A DNA stretch of 14,498 nt from a virus (IMGVR_UViG_2713896909_000003), one strand, 5' to 3'. Counted from the first letter of the stretch, positions 8,713 through 13,402 are shown. The notes: generated by a model not told the origin, from the sequence alone. Made by a program: numbers and translations.

Positions 8713-8735
8713 CCCGCCGCTGGCGGGTTTTTTAT
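8713..8735 (+). terminator. Rho-independent terminator upstream of the major tail gene, preceded by a duplicate of its hairpin
   Basis: Stem cccgcc (8713-8718), loop gct, stem ggcggg (8722-8727), then tttttt-a-tttt. The same 13-mer ccgccgctggcgg also occurs at 8694-8706, 20 nt upstream. Confidence 0.6.
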
Positions 8736-8750
8736 TTTCAGGAGACGAGT

Positions 8751-9455
8751 ATGTCCTCTAATTTTGAGCGTTCGCAACTGACGAAAATTATGATTTCGTC
8801 TGCACCGGTAACAGCAGAAACCCTGGATTCTGCCAGCTATCTTGGCCTGAGCTGTACAATCAAAGAGGTGCAGTTTACCGCAGGACAAAAGCAGGATATT
8901 GATGTCACCACGCTGTGTTCTGTTGAGCAGGAAAATATTAACGGTCTTGGTGCCGCGTCAGAGATTTCCATGTCAGGCAACTTTTACCTCAATGCTGCCC
9001 AGAACGCGTTGCGCAGTGCCTATGACAATGACACCACGTATGGCTTTAAAGTTATTTTTCCGTCAGGAAACGGATTTACCTTTATGGCAGAGGTGCGTCA
9101 GCATACCTGGTCTGCAGGAACCAATGGTGTTGTGGCTGCAACGTTTTCCCTGCGCCTGAAAGGTAAACCTGTGCTGATGACAGAGCCGCTGAAAGTGAAG
9201 GTCGATTTAAACAGCACGCTGCAGGTTTCTGCCGGAGCGAAACTCGAAATGATGGTTGAGGCTGCCGGTGGTGTGCCGCCTTATTCTTATGCCTGGAAAA
9301 AAGGTGGTTCTCCTGTTTCCGGACAGACGGCGGCAACGTTCAGTAAGGCATCAGCAGCATCCGGTGATGCGGGTGCGTATACCTGCGAGATTTCTGATTC
9401 AGCAAGCCCGGTTAACAAAGTGACCTCCACTTCCTGCACTGTTACCGTCAGTTAA
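8751..9455 (+). CDS. Major tail (tube) protein with C-terminal Ig-like domain
   Basis: 234 aa, AGGAG Shine-Dalgarno at 8739-8743. The C-terminal ~90 aa has an Ig-like signature (...SGDAGAYTCEISDSASPVNKVTSTSCTVTVS). Confidence 0.8.
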   Translation: MSSNFERSQLTKIMISSAPVTAETLDSASYLGLSCTIKEVQFTAGQKQDIDVTTLCSVEQENINGLGAASEISMSGNFYLNAAQNALRSAYDNDTTYGFKVIFPSGNGFTFMAEVRQHTWSAGTNGVVAATFSLRLKGKPVLMTEPLKVKVDLNSTLQVSAGAKLEMMVEAAGGVPPYSYAWKKGGSPVSGQTAATFSKASAASGDAGAYTCEISDSASPVNKVTSTSCTVTVS

Positions 9456-9469
9456 TGAGGATAGATGTG

Positions 9470-9841
9470 ATGACTAAAAATATCCGTAATCTGGCACTGG
9501 CAACGATGTCGGGGTTTCGCCATAAAACTGTTGATGTGCCTGAATGGGAAGGGGCAACGGTTGTGTTACGGGAACCTTCTGCAGAAGCCTGGTTGCGCTG
9601 GCAGGAGATCGTTAAAGCAAAAGATGATGAGACACCGTTATCCGTTGCGGAGCGCGCCCGCCGAAATCTGGAGGCGGACGTTGAACTGTTCATTGATGTT
9701 CTGTGTGATACCGGGCTGCAACCTGTATTTTCAGAGGATGATCGTGAACAGGTGATTGCCGTGTATGGCCCGGTGCATGCACGGCTTCTTCGCCAGTCTC
9801 TGGAACTGATCAGTGATGCCGGAGAGGTTAAAAAAAAGTAG
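9470..9841 (+). CDS. Tail assembly chaperone (lambda G-like), 0-frame product
   Basis: Located between major tail and tape measure genes. ATG 9470 has a GAGGA Shine-Dalgarno 7 nt upstream; the ORF track's in-frame ATG 9455 (TAATG overlap) is an alternative start. Ends at TAG 9839-9841 directly after the slippery site. Confidence 0.75.
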   Translation: MTKNIRNLALATMSGFRHKTVDVPEWEGATVVLREPSAEAWLRWQEIVKAKDDETPLSVAERARRNLEADVELFIDVLCDTGLQPVFSEDDREQVIAVYGPVHARLLRQSLELISDAGEVKKK

Positions 9842-10143
9842 CGCTTCCGGGGATGCGTTTTCTGATGATGCTGGCGCTCAGGATGGGGCGCACATTGTCA
9901 GAGTTACGCCGGGAAATGTCCGCATCAGAAATCATGATGTGGGCAGAATTTGACAGGTTCAGCCCGCTGGGGGACGAACGGGCTGATATCCGGGCTGCCC
10001 AGATTGTTTCAGCTGTTTACGGTGCGCAGGGGGTCAAAGTGCCACTGAATGATGCGCTTCTTCAGTGGGAGCAGGAGCAGACAGAAGGCGCCTCAGATCC
10101 ATTTGCCGGACTGGAAAACGCGCTTTTAATAGTGTCTCAGTGA
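9470..10143 (+). CDS. Tail assembly chaperone frameshift fusion (GT-like); join(9470..9838, 9838..10143) via -1 frameshift
   Basis: The -1 frame opens exactly at the slippery heptamer (stop TAA at 9829-9831 in that frame) and runs without stops to 10143. The downstream ORF has no Shine-Dalgarno of its own. The G/GT arrangement is conserved in long-tailed phages. Confidence 0.7.
9832..9838 (+). other. Programmed -1 ribosomal frameshift slippery heptamer A_AAA_AAG
   Basis: Heptamer a-aaa-aag at 9832-9838 within an A8 run, identical to the E. coli dnaX slippery site, followed immediately by the 0-frame stop TAG. Confidence 0.7.
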
Positions 10144-10151
10144 GTCAACAT

Positions 10152-10174
10152 AACCGCTTCGGCGGTTTTTTTTC
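10152..10174 (+). terminator. Rho-independent terminator between the chaperone and tape measure genes
   Basis: Stem aaccgc (10152-10157), UUCG-type tetraloop ttcg, stem gcggtt (10162-10167), then a T8 run. Confidence 0.6.
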
Positions 10175-10183
10175 GTCCGGAGA

Positions 10184-13100
10184 ATGAGTGTGGCGACATT
10201 ACGTGAACTGATTATTAAAATTTCGGCAAACTCCCGGTCATTCCAGTCAGAGATCGCCCGGGCTTCGCGTATGGGGCAGGATTACTACCGCACCATGCAG
10301 AACGGAGGCCGGCAGTCTGCTGCTGCATCCCGTGAAATGCGGCGTGCACTGGCAGAAGTGACGGATCAGATAAATACGGCGAAGTCTTCGGCACTGAATA
10401 TGGCGGGGGCATTTGCCGGTGCTTTTGCCACTGGACATCTAATATCTCTTGCGGATGAATGGAGTTCAGTAAATGCCCGTCTGAAGCAGGCCACGCAGTC
10501 AAGTGATGATTTTCAGGCATCACAACGTGAATTAATGGCAATCAGCCAGAGAACGGGGACGGCTTTTTCTGATAACGCCAGCCTTTTTGCCCGCTCTGCA
10601 GCTTCCATGCGGGAGTATGGTTACAGTTCTGAGGAGGTACTGAAAGTCACCGAGGCGCTCTCCACGGGCCTGAAATTATCCGGTGCCAGTACAGCAGAAG
10701 CCAGTTCGGTGATCACGCAGTTCAGCCAGGCACTGGCGCAGGGAGTGCTGCGCGGTGAAGAATTTAACGCCGTGAATGAGAGCGGTGATCGTGTTATTCG
10801 TGCGCTGGCCGTGGGAATGGGCGTTGCCCGTAAGGATCTGAAGGCCATGGCGGATAACGGAAAACTGACCGCCGATAAGGTTGTTCCTGCACTGATTAGT
10901 CAGCTTGGGGCGTTGCGTGATGAATATGCAGCAATGCCTGATACGGTTTCATCCTCTGCAACCAAAGTTGAAAACGCCTTTATGGCCTGGGTTGGTGGTG
11001 CGAACGAGGCAAGCGGAGTGACGAAGACGCTCTCCGGGGTGCTGAATGGTATTGCAGGCAATATTGACACCGTGGCAACCGCTGCCGGTGCTCTGGTTGC
11101 CGTCGGGGTAGCCCGATATTTTGGCAATATGGCGTCTTCTGCTGGATCTGCAACTGCCGGATTAATTACTGCAGCCAGAAACGAAGTGGCTCTTGCGGAA
11201 GCGCAGCTCCGGGGGACGCAGATAGCAACAGCCAGGGCGCGTGCGGCGGTTTATCGTGCGCAACAGGCGGTTGCTGCTGCTCGCGGTACCGAAAGGCAGG
11301 CAGCCGCAGAATCGAAACTGGCTGCTGCCCAGGCGTCACTTACCCGTAATATTGCGGCCAGAACAGCAGCACAGACAACACTGAATAATGTCACGTCAGT
11401 GGGGAGTCGTCTGTTAAGTGGGGCACTGGGACTGGTTGGGGGTGTGCCGGGGCTTGTCATGCTGGGGGCTGCGGCCTGGTACACGATGTATCAGAATCAG
11501 GAGCAGGCCAGAGAATCTGCACGCCAGTATGCCGCAACAATCGACGAAATTCGCCAGAAAACGTCGGCAATGTCGCTTCCTGAAGCGTCAGATAATGAGG
11601 AAAAGACGCGGCAGGCACTGGAGGAACAAAATCGCCTGATTAGCGAACAGGAAGGAAAAATTCGCGGACTGAAAAATCAAATTGCTGATTATCAACGTTG
11701 GCTTGATGAAAGTTCGCAGAGTGGTTCGGGTGCTGAAATCATCCTTAAAGGGCTTGCAGAAGCAACAAATCAACTGGCAGTTGAACAGTCTCGCCTAACT
11801 CAAATGCAGGGCAAAGCGCAATCCATTCAGGATGTGCTTGCCGGGCTGGAGGAGCGACGGGGGGCGTTGATCCGTCAACAGGCGGCGGAACAAAACAAAG
11901 CGTATCAGTCCCTGTTGATCATGAACGGGCAGCATACCGAGTTTAATCGCCTTCTCGGGCTTGGTAATGAATTACTTCAGCAGCGACAGGGGCTGGTGAC
12001 TGCACCATTACGGCTGCCACAGGCCACCCTGGATGATAAGCAGCAGACTGCACTGAATAACAGCAAGCGCGAACTGGCTCTGTCCCGTCTGAAGGGGGAA
12101 GCGCGTGAGCGTGCCCGACTGGGCTATGTTGCGGATGATCTTGGTTTTGTGGGGGAGGCGTATCAGACAGCCAGACAGAATTATATCAATAACTCACTGG
12201 ATGCATGGCGAAATAACCAGGCAAATAAACCCAAAACACATAAAAAGACCGAAGCGGAAAAAACAGAAGATATTTATAAACAGCTGATTAAACAGCAAAA
12301 AGAACAAATAGCACTGGCAGGGCAAAATACTGAACTGGCTAAGATGAAATATCAGGTCAGTCAGGGCGAATTATCAACCCTGTCAGAAGCGCAGAAAAAA
12401 ACGCTTTTACAGAATGCGGCACTCATCGACCAGAAAAAAATTCGCGAGCAGCTTGCCGCGTATGAAAGCAGTCTGGCGGACAGTAACGCCAGTGTCAGAG
12501 CATCAAATGAGGCTCAGTTACTGGGATATGGTGAAGGCTCACGGATGCGTGAACGACTTCAGGAAATGTGGAGTATCCGGCAGGCGTTTGAGCAGAAAAA
12601 TAATGAGCTGCTGAGACAGTATCAGACCGGAGAAATTGAAGAATCCCTGTGGAAACAGGAAAAAGCACTGAATGAAAAATATCTGGAAGAGCGTCTCAAC
12701 GATCAGCAGGATTATTATGCAAAGGCTGATGCTTTACGCAGTAACTGGAATGCCGGACTCCAGGAGGGACTGACGAACTGGGCAGACAGTGCCACTGATT
12801 ATGCTTCGCAGGCGGCAGATGCTGTCGTTTCCACTATGGACGGGCTGGTATCAAATATTTCCGATGCACTGGCCGGGAATGTTGTGGACTGGAGAAACTG
12901 GGGGAGTTCAATTCTCCAGGAAGTTTCAAAAATTCTGATGAACGCTGCCATCGTTAACGGGCTGAAGTCACTTTCCAAAAGCATGTCCGGTGCCGGAGGA
13001 TGGCTTGGTACGGTCGGCGACTGGCTTTCCGGTGCAGTGGCAAACGCAAAAGGTGGTGTTTACACATCGGCAAATCTGAGTGCTTACAGTAACACCATTG

Positions 13101-13402
13101 TGGATACACCGACGTATTTTGCTTTTGCGAAAGGTGCCGGGCTGATGGGCGAGGCCGGGCCTGAAGCTATCATGCCACTGACTCGGGCAGCGGACGGCTC
13201 TCTTGGAGTCAGAGCCATTGGCAATGTGAATGGTGGCGGTGGATTTGTTTATTCTCCCGTGTATCACATCAGCATTCAGAATCAAGGGAGCAATGGCGAG
13301 ACAGATACGCAGTCAGCCAGGGGGCTGGTGGATCTGATCGACAGCAGGGTTGTGTCAATTATGCAGTCATCACGTCGGGACGGAGGATTATGCAGTGCCT
13401 GA
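10184..13402 (+). CDS. Tail tape measure protein
   Basis: 1072 aa, Ala/Gln-rich helical protein with a central hydrophobic Gly-rich segment (GALGLVGGVPGLVMLGAAAW). The C-terminal region (GGVYTSANLSAYSNTIVDTPTYFAFAKGAGLMGEAGPEAIMPL) resembles lambda H. Start may be ATG 10184 or in-frame GTG 10190, which has better Shine-Dalgarno spacing. Confidence 0.88.
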   Translation: MSVATLRELIIKISANSRSFQSEIARASRMGQDYYRTMQNGGRQSAAASREMRRALAEVTDQINTAKSSALNMAGAFAGAFATGHLISLADEWSSVNARLKQATQSSDDFQASQRELMAISQRTGTAFSDNASLFARSAASMREYGYSSEEVLKVTEALSTGLKLSGASTAEASSVITQFSQALAQGVLRGEEFNAVNESGDRVIRALAVGMGVARKDLKAMADNGKLTADKVVPALISQLGALRDEYAAMPDTVSSSATKVENAFMAWVGGANEASGVTKTLSGVLNGIAGNIDTVATAAGALVAVGVARYFGNMASSAGSATAGLITAARNEVALAEAQLRGTQIATARARAAVYRAQQAVAAARGTERQAAAESKLAAAQASLTRNIAARTAAQTTLNNVTSVGSRLLSGALGLVGGVPGLVMLGAAAWYTMYQNQEQARESARQYAATIDEIRQKTSAMSLPEASDNEEKTRQALEEQNRLISEQEGKIRGLKNQIADYQRWLDESSQSGSGAEIILKGLAEATNQLAVEQSRLTQMQGKAQSIQDVLAGLEERRGALIRQQAAEQNKAYQSLLIMNGQHTEFNRLLGLGNELLQQRQGLVTAPLRLPQATLDDKQQTALNNSKRELALSRLKGEARERARLGYVADDLGFVGEAYQTARQNYINNSLDAWRNNQANKPKTHKKTEAEKTEDIYKQLIKQQKEQIALAGQNTELAKMKYQVSQGELSTLSEAQKKTLLQNAALIDQKKIREQLAAYESSLADSNASVRASNEAQLLGYGEGSRMRERLQEMWSIRQAFEQKNNELLRQYQTGEIEESLWKQEKALNEKYLEERLNDQQDYYAKADALRSNWNAGLQEGLTNWADSATDYASQAADAVVSTMDGLVSNISDALAGNVVDWRNWGSSILQEVSKILMNAAIVNGLKSLSKSMSGAGGWLGTVGDWLSGAVANAKGGVYTSANLSAYSNTIVDTPTYFAFAKGAGLMGEAGPEAIMPLTRAADGSLGVRAIGNVNGGGGFVYSPVYHISIQNQGSNGETDTQSARGLVDLIDSRVVSIMQSSRRDGGLCSA

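Follow-up and report, generated by a model that had tools for sequence, protein, structure and literature searches.

An A_AAA_AAG slip site abutted by a stop codon in the tail assembly chaperone genes of an HK97-like Escherichia coli prophage: a probable −1 ribosomal frameshift of the lambda G/GT type

The window analysed here, the whole stretch of 14,498 nt, carries a run of phage structural genes whose coordinates are collected in Table 1. Upstream of the tail genes lie lysis genes, the small and large terminase genes and those for the portal, an S78 prohead protease and an HK97-fold capsid protein, as well as genes for head completion, an HK97-gp10-like protein and tail completion, a head and tail gene set that identifies the window as an HK97-like late operon. 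The window matches 11 E. coli phage records at 97–98% identity, and prophages matching it occur in 902 of 5426 complete E. coli genomes. Between the major tail and tape measure genes stand two ORFs, a G-like tail assembly chaperone and a T-like frame that is open from 9832, and this gene order fits the G/GT class. The features of that class as laid out by Xu, Hendrix and Duda (2004), namely two-ORF synteny, a −1 overlap, an in-phase slippery sequence and homology of both halves, are all found at the locus.

Table 1. Features of the tail chaperone locus, in window coordinates.
Feature	Position	Strand	Evidence
Major tail protein gene, with C-terminal Ig-like domain	8751..9455	+	phrog_158, E 2.5e-108; Pfam Ig_2 / I-set
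G-like tail assembly chaperone ORF, 123 aa, ending ...GEVKKK-TAG	9470..9841	+	PF06222 Phage_TAC_1, E 2.4e-58, full length; phrog_344
SD-like GGAGAGG, possible minor 5' stimulator, not conserved	9821..9827	+	upstream 4-mer survey
TAA closing the −1 frame right before the heptamer	9829..9831	+	frame arithmetic
A8 homopolymer run containing the slip site	9830..9837	+	direct read
Slippery heptamer A_AAA_AAG (Lys-Lys), in phase; putative −1 shift site	9832..9838	+	read and frame arithmetic
TAG, 0-frame stop abutting the slip codon; candidate 'shifty stop' pause element	9839..9841	+	direct read
T-like extension in the −1 frame, 101 codons plus TGA	9838..10143	+	PF06223 Phage_tail_T, E 1e-19
Tape measure protein gene	10184..13402	+	Pfam Phage_HK97_TLTM, TMP_3, Tape_meas_lam_C

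Two further observations concern the neighbouring genes. The Ig-like domain at the C-terminus of the major tail protein is in frame and is matched by Pfam Ig_2, Ig_3 and I-set, and also by Hoc-like PHROGs; at the same position, related E. coli prophages are annotated with an 'immunoglobulin domain-containing protein', a 'phage tail protein' or a 'hypothetical protein', and this variety suggests domain swapping. Moreover, two strong hairpins resembling intrinsic terminators occur on the + strand inside the late operon, one at 8713-8737 (CCCGCCGCTGGCGGG, then a run of T) shortly before the major tail gene and the other at 10152-10175 (AACCGCTTCGGCGGTT, then T8) separating the T ORF from the tape measure gene. 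Rho-independent terminators are annotated at comparable places in the RefSeq record of phage HK446, and those of the window are presumably read through via late antitermination.

The chaperone gene was listed as an ORF spanning 9455-9841. Its start is probably the ATG at 9470 rather than 9455, since a GAGGA lies 7 nt upstream of the former and both the GenBank phage records and RefSeq use it. At its 3' end the 0 frame reads ...GCC GGA GAG GTT AAA AAA AAG TAG. A preliminary description of this DNA had stated that the 0 frame closes with EVKKK and a TAG, that the last two Lys codons fall within a run of eight A forming the heptamer A_AAA_AAG, that the −1 frame is shut by a TAA just before this heptamer and opens at it to run as far as 10143, and that the heptamer is of the dnaX type rather than that of lambda. 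Direct reading, translation and frame arithmetic confirm all of this at every coordinate. From 9832 the −1 frame stays open to a TGA at 10141-10143 and translates as KK-VALPGMRFLMMLALRMGRT... (also given as KK-VALPGMRFLMMLALRMGRTLSEL...), with its first ATG at 9853. The predicted fusion, join(9470..9838, 9838..10143), would comprise 224 aa. Profile phrog_14766, which has 224 positions, is matched at 1-121 by the G ORF and at 126-220 by the T ORF, and hence covers both halves, in the way expected of a G-T fusion.

The 0 and −1 frames overlap by only 10 nt (9832-9841), so that a single in-phase heptamer position is possible, and it is filled. As AAAAAAG is expected at about 1e-4 per position per strand, chance is unlikely to have filled the sole position allowed. 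By itself the word is unremarkable in the window, where five matches on both strands compare with 2.87 expected; therefore, the case for significance lies in position, phase and conservation, not in the word. A second + strand copy in the major tail gene (9297-9303), close to where the Ig-like domain begins, was rejected as a heptamer site for being out of phase (AAA AAA GGT). Two other recoding routes at the chaperone were likewise discarded: readthrough of the TAG, after which the 0 frame meets a TGA 8 codons further on, and a −2/+1 shift, the +1 frame being open for just 47 codons without T homology.

Conservation of the site was surveyed in 10 phage loci and 73 genomic loci, the latter obtained in one scan of GTDB species representatives with a 6-sequence alignment as query; removal of duplicates and of three disrupted loci (L026, L040 and L069) left 76. 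Of these, 75, drawn from many Enterobacterales genera and Burkholderia phages, have an in-phase A_AAG at the homologous position, and the 76th, from a Halomonas phage, has A_AAA_AAC there. The full motif is A_AAA_AAG in 46 loci, G_GAA_AAG (HK97/HK446 type) in nine, G_GGA_AAG (lambda type) in six and A_AAA_AAC in one, while 14 retain a bare A_AAG tetramer following GCA, GAA or GTA. In the 46 A_AAA_AAG sites and the single A_AAA_AAC site, AAA precedes the last slip codon without exception (47/47). All 73 loci that matched the T-motif check have the T half in the −1 frame (three were unresolved by it), and none of the 76 has it in another frame. The A run is between 3 and 9 nt long, most often 7. 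A 0-frame stop abuts the AAG in 45 loci, and A_AAA_AAG followed by an abutting stop is the commonest layout (30/76). The 10-nt overlap recurs in ten other loci, where GCT AAA or GCT GAA codon pairs create it. Slip position, phase and the choice of AAA AAG are kept even in homologues that are about 30% identical, and this family-wide conservation of the slip position is the decisive evidence against chance. The arrangement in the window is thus typical of its family and not an exception to some lambda norm; the unusual character implied by the preliminary description disappears once A_AAA_AAG is seen to be the majority motif and its combination with an abutting stop the most frequent layout.

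Several minor features emerged from the same survey. The 45 abutting stops comprise 30 TAA, 15 TAG and no TGA, while TGA accounts for 14 of the 31 non-abutting stops; the base following the abutting stop is A in 26 cases, C in 17, G in two and T in none. Weak termination contexts, coding of the T protein and common ancestry are possible reasons for these biases in stop identity and following base. The relatives of HK97/HK446 type (L003, L013-L016, L019 and L027) have neither a canonical heptamer nor an abutting stop; they carry the non-canonical in-phase G_GAA_AAG and then TCT CAA CCC CCG GCG TAA, where the conserved Pro-Pro codons shortly 3' of the slip site might act as a pause. Among the three disrupted loci, L026 shows a frameshift earlier in G. 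In Serratia sp. L9 (L040) six A at 1159-1164 stand where relatives have seven, placing T in the +1 frame. The prophage remnant of Candidatus Symbiopectobacterium endolongispinus (L069) has a genomic A9 at 1154-1162 that brings the G and T halves into one frame; it reads ...AKKK-VTQPGMQFLM, which is the predicted junction, and its G gene is broken further upstream. The homopolymer variants of L040 and L069 may be mutations or assembly errors, and they show the run to be labile.

The closest documented counterpart of the site comes from the catalogue of Sharma et al. 2014 (NAR 42:7210, PMC4066793), whose cluster A_AAA_AAG_25 has as its type gene ECs1801, a 'tail assembly chaperone', and bears the mark [true], meaning that −1 programmed ribosomal frameshifting was safely inferred. 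ECs1801, a chaperone of the Stx-phage type from prophage Sp9 of E. coli O157:H7 Sakai, is 68% identical to the G protein of the window, and its locus has the same order of major tail, G, T and tape measure genes. It ends AGA AAA AAG TAG, with heptamer and abutting TAG identical to those of the window. The codon before AAA AAG is AGA in ECs1801, giving an A6 run, whereas AAA in the window gives A8; further differences are the −1-frame overlap, 25 nt in ECs1801 versus 10 nt in the window, and the upstream GGAG, which ECs1801 lacks. More distant members of the Phage_TAC_1 family, the RefSeq phages HK446 and HK542 and the Burkholderia phage Bcep176, have their slip position as in the window when the proteins are aligned. 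Bcep176, at about 29% identity, carries A_AAA_AAG in phase with the stop 11 codons later; HK446 has G_GAA_AAG and a stop 5 codons later, and HK542 has G_GGA_AAG and a stop 1 codon later.

Frameshifting in tail chaperone genes is conserved across dsDNA tailed phages (PMC5009743, PMC10885494), and the lambda G/GT case was described by Levin et al. 1993 and Xu et al. 2004, 2013 and 2014, as reviewed in PMC5009743. Lambda resembles the window in having two ORFs between the major tail and tape measure genes and a −1 shift near the 3' end of G, at an X_XXA_AAG heptamer ending in the Lys codon AAG, and the T halves of both belong to the same Pfam family, Phage_tail_T. It differs in that its heptamer is G_GGA_AAG (Gly-Lys) and its G protein belongs to another Pfam family than the Phage_TAC_1 (HK97-type) G half of the window; moreover, the lambda G stop is found several codons downstream of the slip site, unlike the stop in the window, which abuts the slip codon. 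The heptamer of the window is identical to that of dnaX (tau/gamma) of E. coli, where it is likewise decoded by a single tRNA-Lys (PMC5009743). Heptamer and tRNA are, however, all that the two sites clearly have in common. In dnaX, the heptamer is preceded at 10 nt by a strong SD-like AGGGAG and followed at about 6 nt by a stable stem-loop, the shift reaches about 50% and the shifted product is the shorter one. The window, by contrast, has no dnaX-like stable stem-loop 5–9 nt 3' of the heptamer, its SD-like element is weak, not conserved and a doubtful counterpart, and its shifted product is longer, as the −1 frame runs for 101 codons where that of dnaX is truncated.

Whether the two halves are made as one protein or T is made on its own can be judged from the codons that separate the slip site from the first possible T start. 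The −1-frame peptide is conserved from the first post-slip codon onwards (V-x-x-P-x-x-x-F-L-M-x-L-A-L-R-x-G-R/K-T), entropy over the first 11 −1-frame codons is highest at the third position (1.37, versus 0.92 at position 1 and 0.80 at position 2), and in many loci the conserved stretch precedes the first ATG. Conservation that begins at the slip site favours a G-T fusion and disfavours an independently started T. It is very unlikely, in our estimation, that no recoding takes place and that T is a free protein of 92-96 aa, initiated at ATG 9853, 9865 or 9868 or by termination-reinitiation after the TAG at 9839. GenBank and RefSeq do list a separate T or DUF4035 protein, ATGs are found 12-27 nt 3' of the stop and the Pfam T domain begins downstream of the candidate ATGs; nevertheless, the codons between slip site and first ATG are under protein-level constraint in the −1 frame throughout the family, and T always lies in that frame, adjoining G or overlapping its end, and the overlap contains the slip motif. 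Nor do the candidate starts have a properly spaced Shine-Dalgarno sequence, as the preliminary description had already held in denying the downstream ORF a ribosome-binding site of its own: a GGGG is immediately adjacent to ATG 9853, and ATG 9865 and 9868 are separated from it by 12-15 nt. Annotators choose different starts, ATG 9853 (96 aa) in the GenBank phages and ATG 9865 (92 aa) in RefSeq/PGAP, where the product is called 'phage tail assembly protein T' or 'DUF4035 domain-containing protein'. A single product is also indicated by phrog_14766 and by the RefSeq records of HK446 and Bcep176, in which the homologous pair is annotated as a joined (frameshifted) CDS, and the lambda T sequence is described solely within gpGT (PMC5009743). 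That the heptamer is a coincidence, a mere Lys-rich C-terminus without any recoding role, would accord with the five copies of AAAAAAG in the window against 2.9 expected, and is effectively refuted by the family survey: position, phase and AAA AAG choice are conserved over 76 loci, including homologues of about 30% identity, which leaves this reading a negligible probability.

Transcriptional slippage, by which RNA polymerase would stutter on the A8 run and add one A, so that ordinary translation of an A9 mRNA yields the ...KKK-VALPG... fusion, appears improbable, though less so than either of the preceding readings. The run does have eight A; slippage is efficient on runs of 9 A/T in many bacteria, 8 A are apparently productive in some IS elements (PMC1088944, PMC5009743), and A9 runs are present in two family members (L012 and L085). 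Since both routes give the same protein, ...EVKKK-VALPGMRF, mass spectrometry cannot discriminate between them. What weighs against slippage is that the A run measures just 3-4 nt in 29 of the 76 loci, with 7 as the commonest length, so that it cannot be the mechanism of the family. Besides, a single phase is fixed, with AAG as the 0-frame codon in 75 of 76 loci and AAA AAG the fixed choice of codons; polymerase needs neither the phase nor the G, whereas a ribosomal slip on tRNA-Lys(UUU) requires both, and this pattern fits the latter. The run-length changes of L040 and L069 are genomic, carry no transcript-level evidence and point to a labile run rather than to slippage as a mechanism in use. 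A minor contribution of slippage in the A8 variant of the window is possible.

As for elements that might stimulate a ribosomal shift, a downstream RNA structure was rejected on the basis of folding z-scores, RNAalifold and explicit pair counts. Folds of 9839-9900, 9839-9930, 9843-9880 and 9800-9900 gave z-scores between −0.8 and −1.3 in three cases and +0.9 in the fourth. The hairpins of the window downstream of the heptamer are no better than those of shuffled sequences (z about −1.2), and they begin 2 nt and 25 nt 3' of it, which is not the usual spacing. RNAalifold returned 0 consensus pairs for 56 homologous 82-nt segments, and helices 1 and 2 of the window are paired in 41% and 45% of cases, equal to slid controls; a third helix of 6 bp is paired in 72%, within the invariant LALRxGR codons and with almost no covariation. 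The folding of the region 3' of the site, which the preliminary description had proposed as a check for a stem-loop or pseudoknot, thus reveals no structure beyond shuffles and none that is conserved, and an Rfam scan of the whole window at the gathering threshold produced no matches. On the 5' side, the heptamer is preceded by GGAG at a distance of 7 nt and by GAGG at 4 nt. An SD-like 4-mer occurs within 20 nt upstream in 40 of the 76 loci, mostly at Glu/Asp codons, and is missing in the closest relative that likewise ends in AAG-TAG (L006, ECs1801); this upstream element is a possible minor contributor.

In lambda, the ratio of G to GT is about 30:1, implying a shift of roughly 3%. The heptamer A_AAA_AAG alone supports 0.29% frameshifting in a reporter, and 4.3% and 39% when accompanied by the IS911 or IS3 stimulators (PMC4066793 Table S3). 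Set against the lambda value, the unaided figure makes some context effect likely at the site of the window. It is plausible, judging from the sequence comparisons, that the abutting stop stands in for a downstream structure. The idea of such a pause is not new, being the old 'shifty stop' concept of Weiss, Dunn, Atkins and Gesteland 1987, as cited in PMC5009743. The window has its characteristic feature, a stop immediately 3' of the slippery run, where a slow A site would favour re-pairing of the peptidyl-tRNA. The best-known natural examples, prfB and antizyme, are +1 shifts.

The specific proposal that the stop acts as a slow-to-decode A-site codon, giving peptidyl-tRNA-Lys time to re-pair in the −1 frame, is one we entertain seriously while judging the balance to lie somewhat against it. 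Still more tentative, and rather doubtful as a generalization, is the notion that in the Phage_TAC_1 (HK97-type) family the abutting stop, and not RNA structure, would be the main −1 stimulator. It would fit the exclusive use of TAA and TAG as abutting stops, the fourth base being A or C in 43 of 45 and never U. It would also fit the tetramer-only sites, in which the heptamer has decayed to a bare A_AAG and the stop abuts in 14 of 14, compared with 31 of 53 canonical heptamers (Fisher p = 0.003, a value that ignores shared ancestry). If this were true, the AAG-bound peptidyl-tRNA-Lys would slip with a weakly terminating stop in the A site, competition by the release factor would set the G:GT ratio, and the level of RF1 and the termination context would matter. 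In any case, the family survey provides a clean natural data set on the abutting stop versus RNA structure as a bacterial −1 stimulator.

Taken together, the data make it highly probable, as far as sequence comparison can tell, that this HK97-like E. coli prophage uses programmed −1 ribosomal frameshifting at the locus, after the manner of lambda G/GT. The earlier proposal that A_AAA_AAG drives a −1 frameshift in the tail chaperone finds support in the Pfam assignments, the synteny and the conserved −1-frame peptide. Most ribosomes translating the chaperone ORF would terminate at TAG 9839 and release the 123-aa G-like protein, while a minority would slip back one base at the heptamer, which is among the shiftiest in E. 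coli, an organism with a single tRNA-Lys (PMC5009743, PMC4066793). AAG pairs less well than AAA with this tRNA, whose anticodon is mnm5s2UUU. Once in the −1 frame, the ribosome would continue GTA GCG CTT ... to the TGA at 10141-10143, the shift being unaided by any conserved RNA structure, and would give the 224-aa fusion ...GEVKKK-VALPGMRF.... If lambda is a guide, the G part would bind the tape measure protein and the T part would recruit the major tail protein. Production of the fusion, its efficiency and the roles of both products are what we infer from the observed anatomy, homology and synteny, together with the family-wide conservation of the slip codon and the trans-frame peptide.

The slip site is real, functionally important to the phage, ordinary and already known. 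With ECs1801, a close homologue, in the catalogue of Sharma et al. 2014, this specific arrangement is already in the literature, and the biological consequence is small, a further case of a well-understood recoding event. The remaining gap is one of annotation. In the GenBank record of vB_EcoS-689R5, which was checked, G and T are two proteins, and they are also separate in its relatives Evi and phi467, as well as in the two RefSeq records inspected in detail among about 900 E. coli genomes with the prophage. No joined CDS was seen in the inspected records of this phage type or among the names of cluster members, and the exact 224-aa fusion is not in a collection of 15 billion proteins. The locus should read join(9470..9838, 9838..10143) with ribosomal_slippage. 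In the same collection the halves are separate entries, G on at least 1000 contigs and T in versions found on 647 and 71; they carry different names, and T appears with two start codons.
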